In this document: positions 1,283-15,834 of the stretch, one piece after another
How the letters are laid out: each line of letters starts with the position of its first letter
Numbering within the stretch: the first letter of the stretch is position 1
From: an uncultured Planctomycetota bacterium
GTDB lineage: Bacteria > Planctomycetota > Phycisphaerae > Sedimentisphaerales > UBA12454
Assembly: GCA_903847315.1 (NCBI GenBank)
Contig: CAINDG010000038.1
Location: forward strand, 67,750-131,749
Direction: 5' to 3'
Length of the DNA: 64,000 nucleotides
Program-made: the position numbers and the translations under genes
Notes under the pieces: model-generated
The model's input: the letters and a program-made list of their open reading frames with translations, nothing else
The model's database searches: none
What the model was told of the DNA's origin: nothing

Positions 1283-1370
1283 TTTATGAAAGTTCCATAA
1301 TAAACGCCGATAAAATATCTACACCTAATTTGACATCGGAAAACCACTTAAGTTCCCTGCAATCTAAATT

Positions 1371-1468
1371 AAAAGTGAAAAGTGAAGAGTGAAGCGTGAA
1401 AAGTTGTTAAAGTCGTTAAAGGCGTTAAAGGCTAACGAGTGAAAAGTGAATAGTGAATAGTGAAAAGT
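1371..1468. repeat. Short tandem word repeats: (A/C)GTGAA(A/G/T) heptamers flanking three GTTAAAGnC nonamers
   Basis: 1371-1404 aaaaGTGAAAAGTGAAGAGTGAAGCGTGAAAAGT. 1405-1432 tGTTAAAGtcGTTAAAGgcGTTAAAGgc. 1437-1468 GAGTGAAAAGTGAATAGTGAATAGTGAAAAGT. Confidence 0.85.
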
Positions 1469-1483
1469 AATATAACTCCATTG

Positions 1484-1576
1484 TTTACGTTGTTGGAAAT
1501 GCTATCCCCGCAGTTTTTTCAAAACTAAGCGCGGGGATACACATAACTTCTTATTTTACGTTGTAGGAAATGTTAT
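1484..1576. repeat. 22-nt direct repeat pair flanking a hairpin
   Basis: DR1 at 1484-1505 is TTTACGTTGTTGGAAATGCTAT and DR2 at 1555-1576 is TTTACGTTGTAGGAAATGTTAT (20/22 identical). Between them TATCCCCGC (1503-1511) pairs with GCGGGGATA (1531-1539). An inner AGTTTT/AAAACT stem lies at 1512-1526. Confidence 0.85.
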
Positions 1577-1617
1577 AAGTCATTATTATTTTTAGAGAAT
1601 AAAGGGGTTATGGCGAT

Positions 1618-1659
1618 TTTTTTCAGCCAAAAGCGCAGTTTTTTCAGCCAAACGCGCAA
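1618..1659. repeat. Tandem 21-nt duplication
   Basis: TTTTTTCAGCCAAAAGCGCAG (1618-1638) is followed directly by TTTTTTCAGCCAAACGCGCAA (1639-1659), 19/21 identical. Confidence 0.85.
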
Positions 1660-1849
1660 GTTGGGTCAAAATGAGGGTACTTTTTGCCACAGAACTCGAA
1701 TATTTTCGCTTAAAATTGGAAAAAATCGGATTTTTTTAGGGGTTTTTTAGCTTTTTTGTCAAATTTCGCGCACTACGACTTGCGCGCTTTTGGTTATTCG
1801 GATGAAAGATAGCCACCAAGGCACTAAGACGCGAAGACAAAAAAGATAT

Positions 1850-2875
1850 TTAGCAAAGATTTACACTTTTGCATATTGGACAACCACCGAGGCAAATCTT
1901 TCTATGAGAACAATCCGGGCAATTATCTGCAAACAATTTCTCTCGGAATTCTCTAAACATATTTGAATTCTGCCATGTGTCTAGAATGTTACCATCATTG
2001 ACAGGAACACCTACCTTAGTTGGTTCCATGAACGAGCATGGATACATTCGCATATCTTCTGATATGAACATTGAAAATCTAGCTGCTTCACATGCATCGT
2101 AGAATGATGGTTTAATGTTTGTAAAATATGCAAGGCCAGACACCATACAACTATCGAAACCAATTCGAAAAGATTGTTCTCGATTTTGTACTAATTCGAA
2201 AAAACATTCTAAATCTTTTTTGTTTACTGATGAAAGTTGTTTTGAAGTTTGTCTGCCAATTGGTTTATAGTTTAAAAATATAATAGCATTTACACCAGAA
2301 AGAAATGGCGGAGGTTCTTTCAGCCAAGAAATTGCGGTACCTATGCTCAGAGAATCAAGAACGAAATGAATATTTGTCTTCATACCGACATTGATAAGCT
2401 TTTTTAAAGCCGCCTCAAACTCATTATAAGGACTGTATGCGCTTACGGCAACGGCGCCACAGTATTTACATGATGCTTTAATTACATCAGAGAATAACCC
2501 TCGCCCGTTTGACGTATAAGAAGGAATAATGCCATATTTCTCTCTGGTCAGTTTCAGGATTTCAGCAAACTTCGGATGCTGATTGGGGTTTCCACCTCCA
2601 AGAGCAACTTGTAAAACTCCCATTGCAGCCGCTTGCTTCATTATAATTTCGTAATTTGCAAGACTTATATGTTTACCTTTAGTGCTTGAATTACGATAAC
2701 AGATTAAACAATTTCGATCACACCATCCAGTTATAGATATATCCATCAACTCAGGTCCATGTTGAGACCATTTAGGCTCAAGGAATCCTTGTTCCTCAAT
2801 CCTAGCGAAAAAGCCTGTATGAAGATTAAATACAGTGGTGTAGTGTTCATTGGCGAAATGTTTAATATGGAGCAT
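1850..2875 (-). CDS. Radical SAM enzyme with C-terminal SPASM (auxiliary 4Fe-4S) domain; gene 4 of the island operon
   Basis: 341 aa. CX3CX2C motif WCDRNCLICY (C52/C56/C59, nt 2699-2722). GGGNP resembles the GGE-type SAM motif. C-terminal CPDCSHRKICLGGC is the CX2CX5CX3C SPASM signature (nt 1880-1921), with extra Cys at 335 and 341. The ATG lies 6 nt after the upstream stop. Confidence 0.85.
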   Translation of the reverse strand: MLHIKHFANEHYTTVFNLHTGFFARIEEQGFLEPKWSQHGPELMDISITGWCDRNCLICYRNSSTKGKHISLANYEIIMKQAAAMGVLQVALGGGNPNQHPKFAEILKLTREKYGIIPSYTSNGRGLFSDVIKASCKYCGAVAVSAYSPYNEFEAALKKLINVGMKTNIHFVLDSLSIGTAISWLKEPPPFLSGVNAIIFLNYKPIGRQTSKQLSSVNKKDLECFFELVQNREQSFRIGFDSCMVSGLAYFTNIKPSFYDACEAARFSMFISEDMRMYPCSFMEPTKVGVPVNDGNILDTWQNSNMFREFREKLFADNCPDCSHRKICLGGCPICKSVNLC

Positions 2876-2881
2876 AAAATA

Positions 2882-3301
2882 CTACCAACCACACTCCAAA
2901 GCATTTATATATAATTCAGGACGATCTATTTCGAAGATCTCAGTACACAAAAAGCTCTCTGGCGATTCACCCTCGCTGCGTAAAGTACCAATGTAAACAT
3001 CCATACCCACTTCGAGAGCATGCTCTGCTCGTTTAGCGGTTGATGGAGAGTGAATGTGTCGTTTCAGTAAAGACTTAATATCTGATGTTGGCCCCCAATA
3101 TTCGGATTTAGCTGCATCTTGTACATTTTCCATCTTTGAACAGAGCAACTCAAACAATTCCTTTCCAAAGGATTCTAAATGTGAACCTTGCTTTATCCCC
3201 AAGGCTTCTAGAAATACTTCCTTATTCGGTTTTCCTTTAGAGATGATAATAAATGAAGTCGATGAACTATTCGTAACATAATCAAATCTAATTTTCATCA
3301 T
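2882..3301 (-). CDS. Orphan 139-aa protein; gene 3 of the island operon
   Basis: No family recognised. N-terminus is MMKIRFDYVTNSSSTSFIIIS and the C-terminus ends ...ELYINALECGW. The ATG at 3301 overlaps the preceding gene by 14 nt and has GGAGAAG immediately upstream. Confidence 0.7.
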   Translation of the reverse strand: MMKIRFDYVTNSSSTSFIIISKGKPNKEVFLEALGIKQGSHLESFGKELFELLCSKMENVQDAAKSEYWGPTSDIKSLLKRHIHSPSTAKRAEHALEVGMDVYIGTLRSEGESPESFLCTEIFEIDRPELYINALECGW

Positions 3302-3737
3302 CTTCTCCTATGAGTTCAGCATTTAAGGTTTTCAAAATAACCTTGCGACCATTTTCCGTGTCTTCCCAAAGCGTATCTATTTGATAATCTCTGCCCCACC
3401 GAAAACTTTTAAGTAAAAGCAAGCAATTATGTGATTTAACCAATTTAGATATTTCTGACAAATAGATTTCATCGATAGCATATTTATGATAAAGGAAGCT
3501 TAGTATATTTGTGTACTCTTCCTTGTAAAATTTTAAATATTCGGCTCTTAAATCAATAGATGTATCAATAAAATATGCATATATTCTTTCAACAAGTTCT
3601 GACATATATGTCCCCGGTATTACATTGGCATTTTTTAAAATATTTTTAAGCTTGGGACGATTTTTTGAAATAACAATAATTCCATTATTTGTCCTTACAA
3701 GAAAAATTTTTCCATTTTGTTGCATTTTCTCTTTCAT
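3288..3737 (-). CDS. Orphan 149-aa protein with acidic C-terminal tail; gene 2 of the island operon
   Basis: No family recognised. It ends ...AELIGEDDEN. The ATG lies 3 nt after the NTPase stop (TAA-agt-ATG, 3743-3735). Confidence 0.7.
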   Translation of the reverse strand: MKEKMQQNGKIFLVRTNNGIIVISKNRPKLKNILKNANVIPGTYMSELVERIYAYFIDTSIDLRAEYLKFYKEEYTNILSFLYHKYAIDEIYLSEISKLVKSHNCLLLLKSFRWGRDYQIDTLWEDTENGRKVILKTLNAELIGEDDEN

Positions 3738-3740
3738 ACT

Positions 3741-6668
3741 TTAAATACAATCCTTTTTAAAACCTCGAAGATGTTGCATAATATGGTTGTTCATAATCTG
3801 TGTTGCAATTTTTGGACGGCGTTGCTTAAATTCCCAAAAGATATCCTGAACTGGGTGCATATAGTCATATCCTTCTATATTCCAAAGATATAACAAAATC
3901 CTAACTAAACCTTTATATGCAGCATCCCATTTATTACCAAGTAATAATGGTTTTAGATGTTCTACAAGTCTATCAATAGGATAAATTCCCAGATATTTGT
4001 CGAATGTATATTTACACAAAAATTGAAAAGTATCGTCATTCACGGTATCGAAAATATCAAATAAAAGGAAGATATTTGCATGTGGGTATATTTGAGAATC
4101 GTACCGACAAAGCAAGTTGGCAACAATATGCGGCGCTGTAGGATTATTCTGATTACATGCTTCTTTTAACACTTTGTCATCGTCCGCAGTGATTGCTTCT
4201 TCATCCAGTTCAAAGATATGTTCATAAAAGACATTTTGGTACCATGGTAAATATTTTATTATATCAATAGCGTTATTTTCTTTTTTTTGTCGTAAAGCGA
4301 AAAAGAGATATTCTTGTAATCCTTCTGCTACAGTGAGCTTAGGAACAGTTAATTTTTCGACGAGATGTTTAAATTTAGCAGCATCTTCTTTTAAAACAAT
4401 ATTTATAAGGTAGTTAGAAATCAGAAAATCTCTACAAGTATCGAATGTAAAATTTATGACTTCATTTTGGACAAATATTTTATTTGTATCGATGTCTTTT
4501 CTTAGCAAAATGTCTTCATCTATCAACTCTAGTAGTAACTTTGATTGATCTGTGTCAAAAATCGAAAATGGCACATCTGAATAAATATTTTGCTTTATCA
4601 TCCAACTGATAATCTTTTTTAGGATAGCCCAATAAGGTCTTTGTTTTCCTATAGGAGTATTTATTGAAGGGGTCTGATCATTAAAATCGCCGAATTTCTT
4701 CTGGAAATATTTATGAAAGATTTCTTCCCGTCTTATATGACGGATAAATGGAATTCGTTTCAATGATTTTGCGGTATGGTCGCCATAAGCCTCACAGAAA
4801 ACTCTTAACAAAAAGGGGTCATTTTCAAATTGTTTAAAAGCATGTTCCGATATTCTATTGGCATATATTTTGAAAAATTTTAAATAACCCCTAACTAATC
4901 GTTGTTTGTGTTCTTCAGACATATGCCGATGGATTTCGCGTTCTATAATCATTTTGTTTGCGAAACTGCTTTTGAGCAAATTTCCAAATCTGATGTCAAA
5001 ATATTCTGAGCGGCAAGTTAATATTACCCGAATATGAGAGTATTCAATACATTTTTCGATAAATCTTTCTATTTCAGATGAAAAGACCTTTATTTCTGGA
5101 TGTTCATTGATAGCATCAAACAAAATAATACCTGCTGTGCCTCTTCTTCTTGCTTCTTCATTTATATCCTGCAATACAGTATCAAATAAACCATTATTTC
5201 CATATATACCTCGTGCAAAATAATTTTGCAGTTCACCATGACTAACATTTGCTAATTCCTTGCCAGTAAAAAAGACGCACGGAATACTACGTTTGGTAAG
5301 ACAATTTTCGGCTAAGTCGCATACGAAATTAGTTTTTCCTTGGCCCGCCTTTGAAACAATGGCGAATACTTTAGCTTTAGCTATTTCACTTTTTTCAAGA
5401 AAAAGTTCCTTAACATGTTCGTTAAGAGAGTGTGCTTTGTCACAAAAATGCCATGAAGTTTCTTCAATAATATGCCTTTTTAATTTTGGAGCTTGACGGA
5501 TTAGGGATGTGCGACTTTTACGGTCCAATGCAGATAATTTTCGGGAAATATTCTCTACAATTTTTTGAAAACGAATAATGTTTTTATCTGTATGTTCAAA
5601 GTTAAATTTGAATTTTTTAAAATTTAAATTGAATTCTAGAGGTTTGAGCCCCGAATGCTTAAGTAAACGATTAATTTCATACAAATTGATACTTTCGAAT
5701 TCATAGAGTAACTTTTCCAAAAAAAGAGCTGGATGACAGAATATTCTTGCTTTTTCTTTGACATCACCTACTTCAATAAATATTTCCGGAATGTATTTTT
5801 TGCTGTTTTTTTCAGCGGCAATGCGATTTTGCAGACGTTTGGTCAAAATAGCCGTGATACTTTCTCCGGCTTGTTGTAGGACTGGTACTTTAAAAGTTGC
5901 TTCTGCCGAAATCCTTTCCGCTAAAGAGTTTCTTGTAATCTCTCCACCATTTATTGCAAAGTCGGTAGCCATTTTATACAAAATGGCATGTAAACTCGTT
6001 GCCTTACGAAAATCTTTGTCACCAACGGTTTCTTGTAGGAGATGAATACAATCTAAAGTGTCGCGTCCTGTTCTTGCGGTAAAATCGAAAGATAGAACAA
6101 TAAAATGTTTTAGTAAATGATGAACTTGAATTTTGGTTGGTTTTTTCCCAATTACTTTTTTTATTCCTGCTTCAAATGCATTCAATATATTTGTTTTAGT
6201 TTTAAACTTCAGCGTTTTCTGGTAAAATGCGTCGGGAGTGGATGATGTTTTAGCCCATTCAAGCAATTCCGCAACATGCCTTTTGACAGTTGAATTATTA
6301 CACACTTCACCAATTGCCAATCCTACACTATCATCATTCTTAAAATTTTTATCGGATAATTGATCCCAAACTTCGTTTACTACTTTGATAAAATCATCGT
6401 TCTTTGAAAATGTGATATTGTGTTTAACTTGCAAACATAATCGCTTTTTTATGCCTGTCGAAGTTTCACAATACAAAACAATATCATCAATGGGACAATC
6501 TCTATTTTTTTGTTGTAAACCAACTTCTTTGATTAAAGCATCTGGCATGCCACGAGGTGCTTCTTGACGCATGAGTCGGAGCAAGTAATAAATAGCTACT
6601 AGGCGGTCGAAGTAATCTCCACCACCACCCATAGAAAACGGATTTACTGCTGCTGCTTTCTTAGCCAT
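3741..6668 (-). CDS. NACHT-like STAND P-loop NTPase with PD-(D/E)xK-like (Cap4/DUF4297-like) N-terminal module and long helical C-terminal region; gene 1 of the island operon
   Basis: 975 aa. Walker A is SKAGQGKT (aa 439-446, nt 5331-5354). Walker B is IILFDAINE (aa 514-522, nt 5103-5129). A downstream RVILTCRSE block resembles the NACHT TSRP segment. The N-terminus has GGGGDYFDRLVAIYYLLRL, then PIDDIVLY..(x)..LCLQVKH (aa 59-83, nt about 6423-6491), a D..QxK arrangement like restriction-fold nucleases. About 350 C-terminal aa are unassigned. Confidence 0.8.
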   Translation of the reverse strand: MAKKAAAVNPFSMGGGGDYFDRLVAIYYLLRLMRQEAPRGMPDALIKEVGLQQKNRDCPIDDIVLYCETSTGIKKRLCLQVKHNITFSKNDDFIKVVNEVWDQLSDKNFKNDDSVGLAIGEVCNNSTVKRHVAELLEWAKTSSTPDAFYQKTLKFKTKTNILNAFEAGIKKVIGKKPTKIQVHHLLKHFIVLSFDFTARTGRDTLDCIHLLQETVGDKDFRKATSLHAILYKMATDFAINGGEITRNSLAERISAEATFKVPVLQQAGESITAILTKRLQNRIAAEKNSKKYIPEIFIEVGDVKEKARIFCHPALFLEKLLYEFESINLYEINRLLKHSGLKPLEFNLNFKKFKFNFEHTDKNIIRFQKIVENISRKLSALDRKSRTSLIRQAPKLKRHIIEETSWHFCDKAHSLNEHVKELFLEKSEIAKAKVFAIVSKAGQGKTNFVCDLAENCLTKRSIPCVFFTGKELANVSHGELQNYFARGIYGNNGLFDTVLQDINEEARRRGTAGIILFDAINEHPEIKVFSSEIERFIEKCIEYSHIRVILTCRSEYFDIRFGNLLKSSFANKMIIEREIHRHMSEEHKQRLVRGYLKFFKIYANRISEHAFKQFENDPFLLRVFCEAYGDHTAKSLKRIPFIRHIRREEIFHKYFQKKFGDFNDQTPSINTPIGKQRPYWAILKKIISWMIKQNIYSDVPFSIFDTDQSKLLLELIDEDILLRKDIDTNKIFVQNEVINFTFDTCRDFLISNYLINIVLKEDAAKFKHLVEKLTVPKLTVAEGLQEYLFFALRQKKENNAIDIIKYLPWYQNVFYEHIFELDEEAITADDDKVLKEACNQNNPTAPHIVANLLCRYDSQIYPHANIFLLFDIFDTVNDDTFQFLCKYTFDKYLGIYPIDRLVEHLKPLLLGNKWDAAYKGLVRILLYLWNIEGYDYMHPVQDIFWEFKQRRPKIATQIMNNHIMQHLRGFKKDCI

Positions 6669-6721: not shown

Positions 6722-6751
6722 ATTATACGGTGGAGATAAGGGAAAAGGCAA
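6722..6751 (-). promoter_or_regulatory. Putative sigma70-type promoter of the island operon
   Basis: Minus strand reads TTGCCT (6751-6746), an 18-nt spacer, then TATAAT (6727-6722). This sits about 55 nt upstream of the ATG at 6668. An AGGT SD-like sequence lies 12 nt before the ATG. Confidence 0.35.
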
Positions 6752-6894: not shown

Positions 6895-7497
6895 ATGACG
6901 AAACACCCTGAAGATGTTTTATATAAATTAAAAATGGATGTTGAAAACGAGTTTTTTGCGGAGAATCCAATTAAAAAATTTCCGGAGGATTTTTTAAGCG
7001 GCCGAATGAAAAAAGAATTGGCGAAACGTATTTCTTATCCTCGTCTTTTCAAATCAAATATCAGGCTTACCAAGGACCATCGGATTAGGTATAAGAAGAA
7101 AATAAGCATTGCAGAAGCGATGGCGGGGACTGCGCTGGTTGGGGCGATGGAGGGAAAGTCGAAAGCGAAGTATGTGGAGATAGGACTGCCGGCGGGCAGG
7201 CTTAAATTAAAGATGGAAAGGAAAGTTCAAATCTGCTTTGAAAGCGGAGCGGTACTTATGGAGTTTTCAAGTTTAGAGCGGGCGAAATATGTGCTTTACT
7301 CAAGGAAGATCCGTTCGACAAGCTCAGGACAGGCCGTATATAAAGTGCCAAAGAGCGAAATTGCGGTCAAAAGGGCTGTGGCGAGATACGAAAAGTATCG
7401 GGCAGAAATACGGGAGAAACTTGTAAAGGCGTTTATGGCGAGAAATGTGGAAAGAGGAGCTGCAGAAGGGTTTGCGGGGTTAGTGATTGAAGAGTAA
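6895..7497 (+). CDS. Hypothetical protein (200 aa)
   Basis: Long ORF with AGGTGAG 6 nt upstream of the ATG. No recognisable motifs. It is divergent from the island operon and intermediate in composition. Confidence 0.55.
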   Translation: MTKHPEDVLYKLKMDVENEFFAENPIKKFPEDFLSGRMKKELAKRISYPRLFKSNIRLTKDHRIRYKKKISIAEAMAGTALVGAMEGKSKAKYVEIGLPAGRLKLKMERKVQICFESGAVLMEFSSLERAKYVLYSRKIRSTSSGQAVYKVPKSEIAVKRAVARYEKYRAEIREKLVKAFMARNVERGAAEGFAGLVIEE

Positions 7498-12462: not shown

Positions 12463-15400
12463 ATGTCAAACAACGAAGCACACAAATTCCATCCCGATTT
12501 CGGGAATAATACTCAGGGACGATACTACGCGGCCAGGAAAAAAAGGGTTATCCGCTGGATAATAGCGATTGTCGCCGTTGTTTTTTTGTGGTTTTTGTAT
12601 AACTGGGGCGGCAATCTGTTAAAACCGATTGCCATAAATCAGATTAAACAACTGACCGGCGCCAGGGTCGATATCGATACGGTTGAGTTCCGGCTGAGCG
12701 GAAAGATAACCCTTGGAAATATACGTATCGGGCCGCTGGAAAAAACAACTCCCGACAACGCGATACTGACCGCCAAAAAGCTCGACGCGTATTTCGCTCC
12801 GACAAGTTTCCTGAAATTCAAGCCGCAATTAAAAAGTCTGAAAATCGAAGACTTCAGCCTTAATATCCAATATAACGGCGATGAAAAACAGTGGAATGTC
12901 GCAGCACTGAAACTGCCGGCGCAGGGCAAAGGCGAATTTTTGCCTGAACTGATATTCAGGCGAGGCGAAATAAAATTTACACAAATCAATAAAGGCGCAG
13001 AAATAAAAACCGTTGCCTGCAATATCGGCGGCGGCAATGCCAAGGCAACCAATGAGAACGAGGTTTACCATTTTGCGGTAACCGAGGAAAACGGCAGAGA
13101 AGATACAGGTAACAGGATACTTATAAAATGGGCACAAAAAGAAATACAGGAAATTGAAATCGAAGGCTATCTGCCGAAGCTTAAGATGACCCTGTTCGGC
13201 AGTAAATGCAATATAAACAGTTTTTACTCAAAAATTACTTCCGATAAGGAAAAAGTAACCTTCGAAAAAGCTACTATCGCAATCGGCCCGGAGACTGTGA
13301 TAGACGTTAACGGAACGGTAAGAGATTTTTCAGACCCCTCATTTGTTTTCGGCGTAAGGATGAAAAATCTAAATGTCCGGCACGAGCCTGCGGACAACTG
13401 TTTTGCGCACGGAAGCAGGATTTTTGAAAGTTTCATTCCCCTGCTGCAGATTTTCTTCGACAATTTCAACCCGCAGGGACTGCTCGACCTTGACGTCATA
13501 CTGACCGGCAAAGCGTCGCAGATAGCAAAGACGCATTGCAACGGATACCTGGGCTGCAAAGACATCTCCATCAAATATTTTGAGTTTCCATATCTCGTTG
13601 AACATCTGGCCGGAAAAATCGACGTGACCGAAACCAGTATGACAATGAAAGACCTCAAGGCATCGCACGGCAAAGTCGATATCACGATGAAAGGATACTG
13701 CAATGGATTCGGCGAAACGATGGACAGCAACGTCGTTCTTTCGAGCAATAATATGCTTTTGGACGAAGAACTTTACACCGCCCTGCTGGAATATCATAAA
13801 AAACTCTGGTATATCTTCGCACCGACAGGAGCTGTTTCGGGAGATTTTATCTACTCGGCAAAACCGCCTAACATAAGACGGCTGCGGTTGTACGCCAACC
13901 TGCTGGACGTATCGATTATGTGCCAGTATTTTCCGTATCCGATAACGGGGATTACCGGCAAAATATCCGTCGATGAAGGCCTGATAGAATTAAAAGATGT
14001 TTTAAGCCATCAGGCCAACGGAACTATTAAAATGCAGGGAAGAATAACCAAGTCAAATACGCCCCACCCTGAATATAATTTCAAAATCCAGGCCAATGAC
14101 GTAGCTATCGACAACAAATTAATAAGCGCCTTTCCGCAGGAACAGAAAAAATTCTTCAGCAACTTCGATATGCAGGCGAAAGGCGATGCGAATATTTATA
14201 TTCATTCGATCGAGAACAACGAAATGCCGATTGACTATACGGCCAAGCTCAATATAAAGGCAGATTCCGTAAAGCATCCGATGCTGCCTGAACCGCTGAA
14301 AAACGTGGTACTGGATGCAAATCTTACGCCGACGGCGTTAGAAGTAAAAAAATTCAATGCGGATTTCAATACCAGTCCCATCAGTGCCGCGGGAATTATA
14401 TGGACAGGCTCCGGCAAAGAACCGCTTGGCTACTGTATGCGGATAACGGCTGAGAAACTGACTCTCGACAGTAATTTCATCAAACCATTTATCGGAGACG
14501 AGAGCGTAAAGATGCTGGAAGATTTCCAGTTCAAAGGAAATGTAAATATTGACGCTGCGATTGGGAAAAACGCCAAGGCAAAATGTCCGGAATACGAAAT
14601 ATCCGTTGATTGCCTCAGCGACACCGCAGTTCTGAACAAATTGAATCTGCCGCTGAAAGATATTTCCGGGAAAATAATCGTAAGGCCGGAAAATATCGAA
14701 CTTGTTTCGCTGTCGGCTTCGCCTGCCGGTGATTTCCCATCGGAAAGTCCGGGGAAAATCACGCTGGACGGAAAAATAAAAATGACCAAGGGTGAAGTCG
14801 ATTCGGCAGAACTTAAACTGAACGCCATCGACCTGAATCTTGATAAAAGATTTATCACGTTCCTGGGAAAAGCGGAAAGTTATTACACGAAACTAACGCC
14901 TGAAGGAAAATTCGACCTGAGTTTCGACAGGATAAAATTTTATAAAAGCGACGCCGGCGACAAAATGCTCGACCTCGACGGAACCGCTATGTTCAAAAAC
15001 TGCTCTATCGGAAAATCAAAGACGATTTCCAAAATATACGCGGCGCTAAATATCAACGCTGAGTACGCTATCGGCAAAGAAATGAAGAACTGCAGATTGC
15101 GTCTCGATATGCAAAGTCTTGCGTTCAAGGAAAGACCGATTAAAAATCTCAAACTGTCGATTCCTTATGATATCAACGACCCGAAAATTGTCGTCAAAGG
15201 TTTCGTAGGCGATTGCTTTGGCGGAAAAATTTCAGGCGACGCCATATTCGAGACCGACAGCAACGGCAATTTTGCGAATTACAAGGTTGACATAGCTCTT
15301 ATAGGGGTCGGCACCGAACAGTTTGTCTCTGCCGGGGCGGACACAACAGCAGATACAGGCGGAGCAATAAACGGCGAACTGCATATAGAGGGAGATATGC

Positions 15401-15834
15401 AAAAGCCGCAGGCAGCACGAGGAAGACTTATCGCCCAGGCAACAGGCATTAAGCCCCGTCAGACGGGAGTAGTGGCGCAAATAAGAACCGCGATATTCGA
15501 GACGGTTAAAAAAGACCTCGCGTTCGACAATATAAAAATCCAGGCGTTTGTAAAGGGAAGCGTACTTGAAATAAGCAGATTCGACCTGTACGGACCAACG
15601 GCATCGCTGAGAGGAACGGGAACTTACGAGCCTGCAACGGATTCGGTAAATATCAAATTCACCGCATACAGCGCCGCGGGAAAAGAAGAGCCGGGCTTTA
15701 TCGAATCTCTTACAGCAGGGTTCGGGCCGGCGTTTTTAAAGGTCGAAATGACGGGGAAACTCGAAAAACCGGAAATAAAAGTCATACCGCTGCCGATTTT
15801 TCAGCAATCGCTCGAAATAATCGGGACGAAATAA
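12463..15834 (+). CDS. AsmA/TamB-like large envelope protein
   Basis: 1123 aa. A single N-terminal TM (WIIAIVAVVFLWFLY) is followed by LTGARVDIDTVEFRLSGKITLGNIRI, typical of AsmA-family N-termini. The rest looks beta-rich. Confidence 0.5.
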   Translation: MSNNEAHKFHPDFGNNTQGRYYAARKKRVIRWIIAIVAVVFLWFLYNWGGNLLKPIAINQIKQLTGARVDIDTVEFRLSGKITLGNIRIGPLEKTTPDNAILTAKKLDAYFAPTSFLKFKPQLKSLKIEDFSLNIQYNGDEKQWNVAALKLPAQGKGEFLPELIFRRGEIKFTQINKGAEIKTVACNIGGGNAKATNENEVYHFAVTEENGREDTGNRILIKWAQKEIQEIEIEGYLPKLKMTLFGSKCNINSFYSKITSDKEKVTFEKATIAIGPETVIDVNGTVRDFSDPSFVFGVRMKNLNVRHEPADNCFAHGSRIFESFIPLLQIFFDNFNPQGLLDLDVILTGKASQIAKTHCNGYLGCKDISIKYFEFPYLVEHLAGKIDVTETSMTMKDLKASHGKVDITMKGYCNGFGETMDSNVVLSSNNMLLDEELYTALLEYHKKLWYIFAPTGAVSGDFIYSAKPPNIRRLRLYANLLDVSIMCQYFPYPITGITGKISVDEGLIELKDVLSHQANGTIKMQGRITKSNTPHPEYNFKIQANDVAIDNKLISAFPQEQKKFFSNFDMQAKGDANIYIHSIENNEMPIDYTAKLNIKADSVKHPMLPEPLKNVVLDANLTPTALEVKKFNADFNTSPISAAGIIWTGSGKEPLGYCMRITAEKLTLDSNFIKPFIGDESVKMLEDFQFKGNVNIDAAIGKNAKAKCPEYEISVDCLSDTAVLNKLNLPLKDISGKIIVRPENIELVSLSASPAGDFPSESPGKITLDGKIKMTKGEVDSAELKLNAIDLNLDKRFITFLGKAESYYTKLTPEGKFDLSFDRIKFYKSDAGDKMLDLDGTAMFKNCSIGKSKTISKIYAALNINAEYAIGKEMKNCRLRLDMQSLAFKERPIKNLKLSIPYDINDPKIVVKGFVGDCFGGKISGDAIFETDSNGNFANYKVDIALIGVGTEQFVSAGADTTADTGGAINGELHIEGDMQKPQAARGRLIAQATGIKPRQTGVVAQIRTAIFETVKKDLAFDNIKIQAFVKGSVLEISRFDLYGPTASLRGTGTYEPATDSVNIKFTAYSAAGKEEPGFIESLTAGFGPAFLKVEMTGKLEKPEIKVIPLPIFQQSLEIIGTK

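Follow-up and report, generated by a model that had tools for sequence, protein, structure and literature searches.

What would a radical S-adenosylmethionine (SAM) enzyme be doing in one tight operon with a STAND-type nucleoside triphosphatase (NTPase) and two small proteins, and does the combination defend its host? The question is raised by four genes at positions 1850 to 6668 of a 64,000-nucleotide (nt) stretch of DNA from an uncultured Planctomycetota bacterium (contig CAINDG010000038.1, assembly GCA_903847315.1), the whole of which is called the window below. A preliminary description of this DNA had proposed a horizontally acquired conflict or anti-phage module that fits no named system. 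The follow-up analysis reported here finds that the four genes belong to a widespread, distinct, and unnamed four-gene family, an Avs2-like STAND NTPase with a radical SAM accessory, and that the copy in the window is intact. The family is very probably a STAND-type conflict or defence module. The best explanation overall, to which about an even chance is given, is an anti-phage abortive-infection module of four proteins built around a short Avs2-like STAND NTPase.

To our knowledge, in the well-studied bacterial STAND cases it is always one polypeptide that senses a phage protein, through a long C-terminal domain. The module described here keeps the switch and the exchangeable effector, and three obligatory partners would replace the distal sensor. 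Its genes are as follows, in window coordinates, each being an open reading frame (ORF) whose product is measured in amino acids (aa).

3741..6668, minus strand: gene 1, 975 aa, a short Avs2-like STAND NTPase with an N-terminal effector domain
3288..3737, minus strand: gene 2, 149 aa, a fast-evolving paralogue of gene 3
2882..3301, minus strand: gene 3, 139 aa, a small protein with an invariant NSSSTSF motif
1850..2875, minus strand: gene 4, 341 aa, a radical SAM enzyme with a full SPASM domain

All four ORFs and their three junctions, read directly from the sequence, lie exactly where the preliminary description had placed them. Gene 1 ends with TAA (3743-3741), which is followed by agt and the ATG of gene 2 (3737-3735); genes 2 and 3 overlap by 14 nt, with the gene 3 ATG at 3301 inside gene 2 and GGAGAAG before it; and gene 3 ends with TAG (2884-2882), which tatttt separates from the ATG of gene 4 (2875-2873). 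The residue numbers given earlier for the motifs of genes 1 and 4 (SKAGQGKT, IILFDAINE, LTCRSE, DD, QVK, CDRNCLIC, and CPDCSHRKICLGGC) were likewise all correct.

Conservation and distribution of the module

Related loci were collected by a one-genome-per-species scan with an alignment of gene 4 homologues, which gave 178 relatives, 80 of which were kept with flanks of 10 kilobases (kb); the radical SAM gene is the only anchor of these 80 loci. They come from more than 12 bacterial phyla and three archaeal lineages. The bacterial groups include Verrucomicrobiota, Chloroflexota, Cyanobacteria, Desulfobacterota, Myxococcota, Acidobacteriota, Bacteroidota, and Nitrospirota, together with Alpha-, Gamma-, and Zetaproteobacteria, Campylobacterota, Bacillota, Hydrogenedentes, and Chlamydiae; the archaeal ones are Methanoregula, Methanosarcinales, and Micrarchaeota. 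A gene 3 homologue found separately, in a Phycisphaerales genome (Planctomycetota), stands in the identical layout.

Gene 3 adjoins the radical SAM gene in 80/80 loci, with a median identity of 35% to the window protein, and gene 1 lies upstream in 79 of the 80 (median identity 28%), the exception being a contig of 2.6 kb. Gene 4, the anchor, has a median identity of 50% and is the most conserved and slowest-evolving component. Gene 2 was detected by tblastn in 36/80 loci, and its median identity of 31% refers to those 36 only. A hidden Markov model (HMM) built from these members finds 41/41 held-out ORFs at the gene 2 position, and a gene 2 ORF is present in 79/83 loci, between genes 1 and 3 in essentially all of them. 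The order of STAND NTPase, gene 2, gene 3, and radical SAM enzyme is constant, with median junctions of -4, -11, and +3 nt.

Recurrence of the four families in the same order in unrelated genomes had been put forward beforehand as a check on the operon, and they do recur together across more than 12 phyla; the order and the junctions conserved in 80 loci also bear out the earlier view that the four genes are one tightly coupled unit. A fifth conserved gene was not found among 813 flanking ORFs, and the four genes are the complete conserved unit because no flanking family recurs in more than six loci. The flanking families that recur are generic ones, such as LysR regulators, histidine kinases, integrases, HNH-HIT proteins, and HerA.

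In two cyanobacterial loci, from Nostoc (L087:4510-5958) and Mojavia (L007:4518-5951), a same-strand gene of about 480 aa is found some 18 nt upstream of gene 1, and the Nostoc copy has lipase-type domains (LCAT and, weakly, PGAP1). This gene may represent a fifth component specific to the lineage, or else an effector that stands alone.

The genomic settings of the module are diverse. The copy on an Agrobacterium pAt plasmid adjoins a HerA-like ATPase, a (p)ppGpp synthetase, an integrase, and VapB, and that of Rhodobacter adjoins insertion sequence (IS) elements and a DUF3883 protein. The Nostoc module stands beside an integrase, a DEAD/ResIII helicase, and a second NACHT-WD40 protein, the Syntrophobacteraceae module beside Mrr_cat, AAA_13, PIN, and an integrase, and the Methanoregula module beside an IS1595 transposase; other neighbours include ArdC/Prim-Pol with ParA, and Bro-N with HNH-AP2 genes. 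These settings fit a mobile cassette that is often, though not always, found in defence or mobile neighbourhoods. As the preliminary description had supposed, the module looks horizontally acquired, because it is low in GC, patchily distributed over phyla, and variable in its flanks, and because several loci have integrases or IS elements close by. A blastn search of E. coli genomes with a gammaproteobacterial copy gave no result.

On one soil metagenome contig (L171:5335-12303) the module is inserted between ruvA and ruvC, housekeeping genes that are normally linked, a clear instance of insertion in the manner of a cassette.

An Avs2-like switch with an exchangeable effector

Gene 1 had been assigned to the NACHT clade of STAND NTPases, with an effector at its N-terminus. 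The STAND character and the effector position are upheld, and Avs2-like fits better than NACHT: Pfam NACHT (PF05729) reaches 12.1 bits against a cut-off of 26.7, over aa 436-596, whereas six PADLOC Avs2 models match with E-values (E) from 3.4e-23 to 1.7e-6. Among the homologues, that of Methanoregula has an unmarked precomputed NACHT match and that of Nostoc a faint one. The PADLOC Avs2 matches (E 3e-23 to 5e-17) align aa 280-834 of gene 1, approximately, with model positions of about 259-742 out of about 1500. The NCBIfam Avs2 model (NF041813) gives 76.1 bits (E 1.6e-21), without reaching its equivalog cut-off of 1000, and pairs aa 354-800 with model positions 86-530 of 1317. A phmmer search of gene 1 against the PDB gave no result. 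The following features of gene 1 are referred to below.

5829..6668, minus strand: N-terminal domain of about 280 aa, a putative PD-(D/E)xK-type nuclease effector with conserved motifs
5331..5354, minus strand: Walker A motif SKAGQGKT, aa 439-446, with K445, within the Avs2 and NACHT matches
5103..5129, minus strand: Walker B motif IILFDAINE, aa 514-522

Further motifs of the protein are LTCRSE (aa 550-555), DD (aa 61-62), and QVK (aa 80-82).

The relation to Avs2 is clearest in a comparison of families. The gene 1 family and that of KpAvs2, the Avs2 protein of a Klebsiella pneumoniae defence operon, align in hhalign at 99.6% (E 4e-24) over 499 columns, pairing aa 427-967 of gene 1 with residues 325-846 of the 1358 of KpAvs2 and leaving residues 847-1358 without a counterpart. 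Gene 1 is taken to be about 510 residues short of the KpAvs2 end because the alignment stops at about residue 846 of 1358. The recognition domain of KpAvs2 occupies residues 1066-1352, and its deletion abolishes binding of the phage protein (PMC11564622). As aligned, gene 1 is therefore without the distal part of about 510 residues that includes this phage-recognition domain, and by these matches it is best described as Avs2-like, not NACHT. Lengths in the gene 1 family run from 734 to 1091 aa, with an outlier of 1178 aa that is a fusion of genes 1 and 2.

The N-terminal domain is the variable part of the protein. In the window-type domain the motifs GGGxxFE, D61-D62, and Q80-x-K82-H83 are invariant or nearly so among ten homologues, across which E21, D61, D62, Q80, and K82 are conserved. 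The motif on which a nuclease-like N-terminus had been proposed is thus conserved, and it is the ground on which the nuclease assignment is plausible. Some members with this domain have weak PADLOC matches (PDC-M54A, 7.6e-9; LmuA, 2e-4; REase_II, 0.017).

Two of the ten homologues of the domain match the PADLOC candidate system PDC-M54A (7.6e-9), and two match 'DUF626_VIII' (6.4e-6), which suggests that the window-type effector domain may be common to other candidate defence systems.

Among the gene 1 homologues the first 100-300 residues or so are exchanged. SMEK_N is the commonest of the named domains, at the N-terminus of 44 of the 75 proteins in which it could be scored (E 2.7e-43), and PGAP names these members 'SMEK domain-containing protein'. 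The window-type N-terminus accounts for 12/75 entries, among them the window protein itself and a single Phycisphaerales locus present as three redundant records. Other N-termini are Trypsin_2 (1.3e-11), PNP_UDP_1 (1.5e-17), an alpha/beta hydrolase, a transglutaminase-like domain, NNH5, and membrane helices. These alignments identify gene 1, at the level of homology, as an Avs2-like switch with an exchangeable effector position and with the distal sensor missing.

Gene 4, a radical SAM enzyme with a SPASM domain

The earlier assignment of gene 4 to the radical SAM enzymes with a SPASM domain stands, with matches above curated cut-offs: Pfam Radical_SAM (PF04055) scores 45.3 bits against 29.5, and SPASM scores 22.9 against 21.5 with PF13186 (aa 262-322) and 33.8 against 27 with TIGR04085. 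These domain matches make gene 4 a radical SAM enzyme whose SPASM domain is complete, and its cysteines are arranged as follows.

2699..2722, minus strand: CX3CX2C cluster motif CDRNCLIC, aa 52-59, with C52, C56, and C59 invariant in 25 homologues
1853..2092, minus strand: SPASM region, aa 262-341, with C262, C280, C319-X2-C322-X5-C328-X3-C332, and C341

The motif CPDCSHRKICLGGC lies at aa 319-332. In the same 25 homologues C243, C262, C280, C322, C328, C332, and C341 are invariant and C319 is nearly so. A search found 1,969 homologues of gene 4, and none of the best 120 falls below 52% identity over its full length.

The closest solved structures are those of SuiB (5v1q; 58.8 bits over 286 columns), PqqE (37), and anSME (24), and the top NCBIfam matches are the GeoRSP, WgkB, and mycofactocin maturases. 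None of the NCBIfam equivalog cut-offs is reached, the best score being that of the GeoRSP maturase at 61 against 400 bits. Gene 4 is thus nearest to SPASM enzymes that modify peptides or proteins, among them SuiB and PqqE, which cross-link peptides.

Outside the module, the relative found to be closest to gene 4 is a 400-aa protein of T4-like phages (KP15_135, RB43; phrog_7293). With the family model of gene 4, KP15_135 reaches 168 bits (E 2e-53), over HMM positions 8-329, compared with 54.6 bits for Avap1, the radical SAM protein of the KpAvs2 operon, and the match takes in the N-terminal extension and part of the SPASM region. The phage protein has CX7CX2C spacing (the KP15 copy is L169:2884-4086). 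A radical SAM relative of this kind is found in 178 phage records, including KP15 and RB43, from phages of Klebsiella, Enterobacter, Cronobacter, Citrobacter, and Escherichia, and no relatives of genes 1, 2, or 3 were found beside the phage gene. The phage protein could serve as a counter-defence, perhaps a mimic, or represent the stock from which the enzyme evolved, or be a case of unrelated chemistry; its place as closest outside relative is a hint of an arms-race link.

Genes 2 and 3, two paralogous small proteins

Both small proteins had been described as orphans, which proved wrong. The gene 3 family comprises at least 1,163 clusters at 50% identity (full HMMER scan, E<=1e-3), and the best 150 relatives are all stand-alone proteins of about 100-160 aa. 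The gene 2 and gene 3 families align with each other in hhalign at 98.2% (E 5e-14, 110 columns), or at 97.7% when larger alignments are used, and the AlphaFold models of the two proteins have strands and helices in the same order; profile and model together identify genes 2 and 3 as paralogues. Neither has a match in Pfam, NCBIfam, PADLOC, or PHROGs.

The AlphaFold2 model of gene 3 has a pLDDT of 83.8 and a pTM of 0.81. That of gene 2 reaches a pLDDT of 74.6 from a shallow alignment of four sequences; of the five models made, a single one was good and four were poor. Foldseek comparison of both models with the PDB gave no match at E<=0.001. A PqqD-like winged-helix fold, of the kind that serves as recognition element (RRE) for peptides that are made on ribosomes and modified after translation (RiPPs), was considered for genes 2 and 3 and rejected: no RRE is among the top Foldseek matches, and there is no Pfam match.

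The conserved residues of gene 3 are concentrated in a few places. N11, S12, S13, T15, G35, S109, C119, and W139 are invariant, and the tryptophan is the very last residue in 36/36 diverse sequences.

3251..3271, minus strand: codons of NSSSTSF, aa 11-17 of gene 3, an N-terminal motif invariant in two alignments

In gene 2, which evolves fastest, this serine-rich motif is lost. The starts of both genes may be set slightly further in, since the family alignment of gene 3 points to the second ATG, at 3298, and gene callers start gene 2 at its fifth codon, which gives 145 aa.

Two loci, one from Anaerolineae (E 4.5e-28) and one from Myxococcales (E 4.5e-18), have gene 2 joined in frame to the gene 1 C-terminus. 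Gene 2 is proposed to be an adaptor at the C-terminus of gene 1, and gene 3 to be a substrate or partner of the radical SAM enzyme.

The two fusion loci, both from metagenome-assembled genomes (L006:401-1720, Anaerolineae; L015:6044-9580, Myxococcales, 1178 aa), represent two independent lineages; a sequencing artefact is possible.

Comparison with known systems

The nearest precedent is the KpAvs2-Avap1-Avap2 operon, a three-gene defence operon of Klebsiella pneumoniae (Bechon et al. 2024 Nat Commun, PMC11564622). Full defence by KpAvs2 needs the accessory proteins, whose roles were left unexplained in that study: Avap2 binds KpAvs2 and resisted deletion in the presence of Avap1 and Avs2, and Avap1, the radical SAM protein, is needed against T2 and dispensable against SECphi18 (PMC11564622). 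No modified nucleotides or viperin-like products were detected for Avap1, and no nucleoside triphosphate (NTP) pocket was predicted (PMC11564622). The preliminary description had held the prokaryotic viperins to be the only radical SAM family with a documented antiphage role; that statement falls, given the documented and STAND-linked role of Avap1 (PMC11564622).

For the comparison, the first 400 nt of each KpAvs2 operon gene were taken from the plasmid table of the preprint, and the Avap1 fragment served as the query. The whole operon was recovered on a metagenome contig, L089 (100% over the fragment), together with 79 related metagenome loci. Like the module, this operon tightly combines an Avs2-type STAND NTPase bearing an N-terminal nuclease-type effector (putative in gene 1) with a radical SAM protein and an accessory protein of about 135 aa. 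The differences are several. The KpAvs2 operon has three genes in the order avap1-avap2-avs2, on L089 and in the related loci, and the module has four, with the STAND gene first and the radical SAM gene last. KpAvs2 and its operon relatives measure about 1330-1430 aa, against 734-1091 aa in the module (975 here), and their N-terminal effector domain is not detectably related to that of gene 1. Avap1 has 305 aa, a CX3CX2C motif, and no SPASM cysteines, whereas gene 4 has 341 aa and a full SPASM domain; one small partner, Avap2 (135 aa), stands in the place of genes 2 and 3.

The radical SAM cores of gene 4 and Avap1 are homologous (hhalign 99.0% over 158 columns; BLAST 26% identity over 121 aa). 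Orthology of the two was rejected, since Avap1 is without SPASM and aligns to only half of gene 4. Membership of genes 2 and 3 in the Avap2 (DUF6375) family was rejected as well: 0/71 members match PF19902, and HMMER and hhalign comparisons with the Avap2 family are negative (hhalign 1.1% for gene 3, 0.1% for gene 2). Judged by these homologies, the module is a relative of the KpAvs2 operon in theme and in two of its parts, and not a member of it.

On L089 an ORF of 762 aa (13392-15680) lies directly downstream of KpAvs2, overlapping its stop codon; its N-terminus (FEDLVRDLIGKEEG...DGRH...LQAKHY) has a restriction-endonuclease-type look.

The canonical Avs2, or AVAST type 2, is reportedly a single-gene system, the subject of work by Gao et al. 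in 2020 and 2022. The layout of effector, NTPase, and C-terminal region is alike, and the central NTPase and helical region match; the long terminase-binding sensor of Avs2 is absent from gene 1, and the module is, by conservation, strictly dependent on three genes more than the one of AVAST type 2. A systematic survey of STAND proteins published in 2026 discarded those with fewer than 400 aa after the NTPase (PMC13581612). If that rule was applied, the module family was probably left out of it, as only about 380 aa of gene 1 follow the NACHT match.

With the SPASM enzymes SuiB/StrB, PqqE (with PqqD), MftC, and anSME, gene 4 has in common the CX3CX2C motif and the full set of SPASM cysteines; it differs from them in having no N-terminal RRE and no detectable PqqD-like partner, and in standing in a STAND operon rather than a biosynthetic cluster. 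The prokaryotic viperins (pVips) are radical SAM enzymes whose generic core matches gene 4, but they lack the SPASM domain that gene 4 has, act on nucleotides, and are not STAND-linked. Ternary conflict systems of the vWA-MoxR/FtsH type carry a stand-alone radical SAM effector gene (Kaur et al. 2020 eLife, PMC7159879). By their description these follow the same proposed logic, although they are predictions only and their NTPase is a MoxR AAA+ protein with vWA, not a STAND protein. In the literature on radical SAM proteins with STAND, NACHT, Avs2, or SMEK, the KpAvs2 paper was the only relevant precedent found, and no description of the four-gene module was found. The module has no name in Pfam, NCBIfam, or PADLOC, and no PADLOC or NCBIfam model of a named system covers the full set of four genes, in agreement with the preliminary description.

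Proposed mechanism

In the mechanism that we propose, gene 1 would be an ATP-driven oligomerization switch with an exchangeable N-terminal killing domain, here a putative PD-(D/E)xK nuclease. Genes 2 and 3 would dock at the C-terminus of gene 1 and replace the missing sensor or regulatory domain. Gene 4 would act as a protein maturase that post-translationally modifies a partner, most probably gene 3, and this modification would arm or gate the receptor. On infection the complex would oligomerize, and the N-terminal effector would destroy the DNA of the cell or of the phage. A defence role is probable, and the defence phenotype is one that we infer; this reading is supported because the KpAvs2 operon needs a radical SAM protein and a small Avs2-binding protein for full defence. 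The split sensor with its maturase, as stated here, is offered as a tentative model that could readily be wrong in this form.

Gene 3 is the best candidate for the substrate of gene 4 because its NSSSTSF motif, Cys119, and C-terminal tryptophan never vary, and the position of gene 4 as the most conserved component fits an enzyme that acts on an invariant substrate within the system. Radical SAM enzymes like gene 4 are oxygen-sensitive, and the class normally cross-links peptides. The candidate modification would be a cross-link involving the serine-rich motif, Cys119, or the C-terminal tryptophan of gene 3. In its most specific form the proposal describes a receptor like the nucleotide-binding leucine-rich-repeat proteins (NLRs), with a sensor split into two paralogous subunits and a competence that depends on covalent modification of one of them by gene 4, and in this form it is rather doubtful. 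If true, it would be the first case in which protein maturation by a radical SAM enzyme forms a built-in part of innate immune sensing, and one found across bacteria and archaea. The role of gene 4 also bears on a question left by the KpAvs2 work, in which the radical SAM partner matters against some phages for a reason that is not given.

Several observations weigh against this account. In the window the operon is flanked by purD and TspO and, at its other end, by a type II secretion operon, which are housekeeping rather than defence genes. The N-terminal domain of gene 1 has no sequence match in Pfam, either as a single sequence or with ten homologues, or in the PDB, where profile matching too was negative, and it aligns with the Mrr domain of KpAvs2 at only 0.2% in hhalign. 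Genes 2 and 3 resemble no known RiPP recognition element and no solved fold in the Foldseek comparison with the PDB, and the KpAvs2 precedent is not transferable to them because they have no similarity to Avap2. Avap1, without a SPASM domain, aligns to aa 14-178 of gene 4 only. The substrate of gene 4 may be no protein of the system at all, because phages carry a closer relative of it than Avap1 is. The module family, finally, is known from sequence alone, so that gene 3 as substrate and the binding of genes 2 and 3 to gene 1 are matters of deduction.

Alternative explanations

Gene 4 might, on activation, produce an antiviral or signalling small molecule in the manner of a viperin, with the STAND NTPase and the small proteins regulating it or responding to it. 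PADLOC pVip models do match its radical SAM core (E 1.6e-8), some SPASM-type enzymes act on substrates other than peptides (NirJ and AhbD on haem, and tetraether lipid synthase), and the homologue in T4-like phages, next to which no relatives of genes 2 and 3 lie, accords with a substrate other than a protein of the system. The pVip match, on the other hand, is confined to the generic core (aa 47-162), gene 4 reaches only 27.7 with the NCBIfam model for viperin (NF038283), whose cut-off is 180, and the best-scoring characterized relatives of gene 4 are peptide cross-linkers; moreover, gene 1 already bears its own exchangeable effector domain, and the related Avap1 yielded no detected modified nucleotides and has no predicted NTP pocket (PMC11564622). 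A small-molecule role is therefore improbable. The enzyme could also belong to a guard circuit, in which it constantly modifies gene 3 (or gene 2) and, when a phage interferes with SAM, iron-sulfur clusters, or reducing power, the small protein left unmodified would free the STAND NTPase. Phage SAM lyases exist and would stop such a modification. Indirect sensing of this kind fits a conserved enzyme that is strictly coupled to a receptor without a distal sensor, and a restraining role is hinted at by the T2-specific need for Avap1 and by the undeletable Avap2 (PMC11564622), to which, however, genes 2 and 3 are unrelated. The guard circuit is purely inferential and not separable from the split-sensor model by the present data, and it appears distinctly improbable.

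A RiPP-like natural-product cassette, with gene 3 and perhaps gene 2 as a precursor with a large leader, gene 4 as its maturase, and the STAND NTPase as a regulator, would explain why gene 4 groups with RiPP maturases. The invariant C-terminal residue, cysteine, and serines of gene 3 also call to mind precursors like MftA, in which a SPASM enzyme modifies the C-terminus. Against this, transporter, protease, and immunity genes are not conserved nearby among the 813 flanking ORFs, gene 3 is a predicted folded domain of 139 aa (pLDDT 83.8), and Foldseek finds no RRE-like fold for gene 2 or gene 3 in the PDB. Gene 1, for its part, has no DNA-binding domain, is homologous to the validated defence protein KpAvs2, and has an N-terminus that is swapped among enzymatic and membrane domains of toxic type, as in immune STAND proteins, all of which makes such a cassette highly improbable. 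That the four genes are accidental neighbours in this genome is refuted for practical purposes by an order and overlapping junctions conserved in 80 loci of more than 12 phyla and three archaeal lineages. The split-sensor model with gene 4 as maturase thus remains the preferred reading of the mechanism, at the strength given above.

Composition and surroundings of the operon

The operon has a guanine-plus-cytosine (GC) content of 34.2%, against 44.7% for the rest of the window, and is the 4.8-kb stretch of lowest GC anywhere in the 64 kb. It had been described as poorer in GC than its flanks, which is correct, although the figure of 48-57% given for the flanks was too high. A promoter had also been proposed, and the two hexamers do exist at 6751-6722; sites of this kind are as frequent in the region (21) as expected from shuffled sequence (22), and because of this equality the site alone carries no weight and is indistinguishable from chance. 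Two features flank the genes.

6722..6751, minus strand: candidate promoter TTGCCT-18-TATAAT upstream of gene 1, with sigma-70-like hexamers that match at 10/12 positions; weak
1283..1849 (567 nt), no strand: low-GC, repeat-rich non-coding stretch downstream of gene 4, GC 34-40%

Upstream, the operon is adjoined by a divergent ORF of 200 aa at 6895-7497 (plus strand), which found no match in Pfam, NCBIfam, PADLOC, or PHROGs, is accepted by gene callers, and has a strong purine skew. Scans for Rfam families and tRNAs gave zero matches in the operon region and the whole window, including the stretch at 1283-1849. This stretch contains GTGAA(A/T)A heptads at 1374-1468, a pair of 34-nt repeats at 1472-1505 and 1543-1576 with a GC-rich hairpin between them, and 20-nt copies of TTTTTTCAGCCAAA(A/C)GCGCA at 1618-1658. 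It is probably part of the inserted segment, and it may have a regulatory function or be left over from the insertion site.

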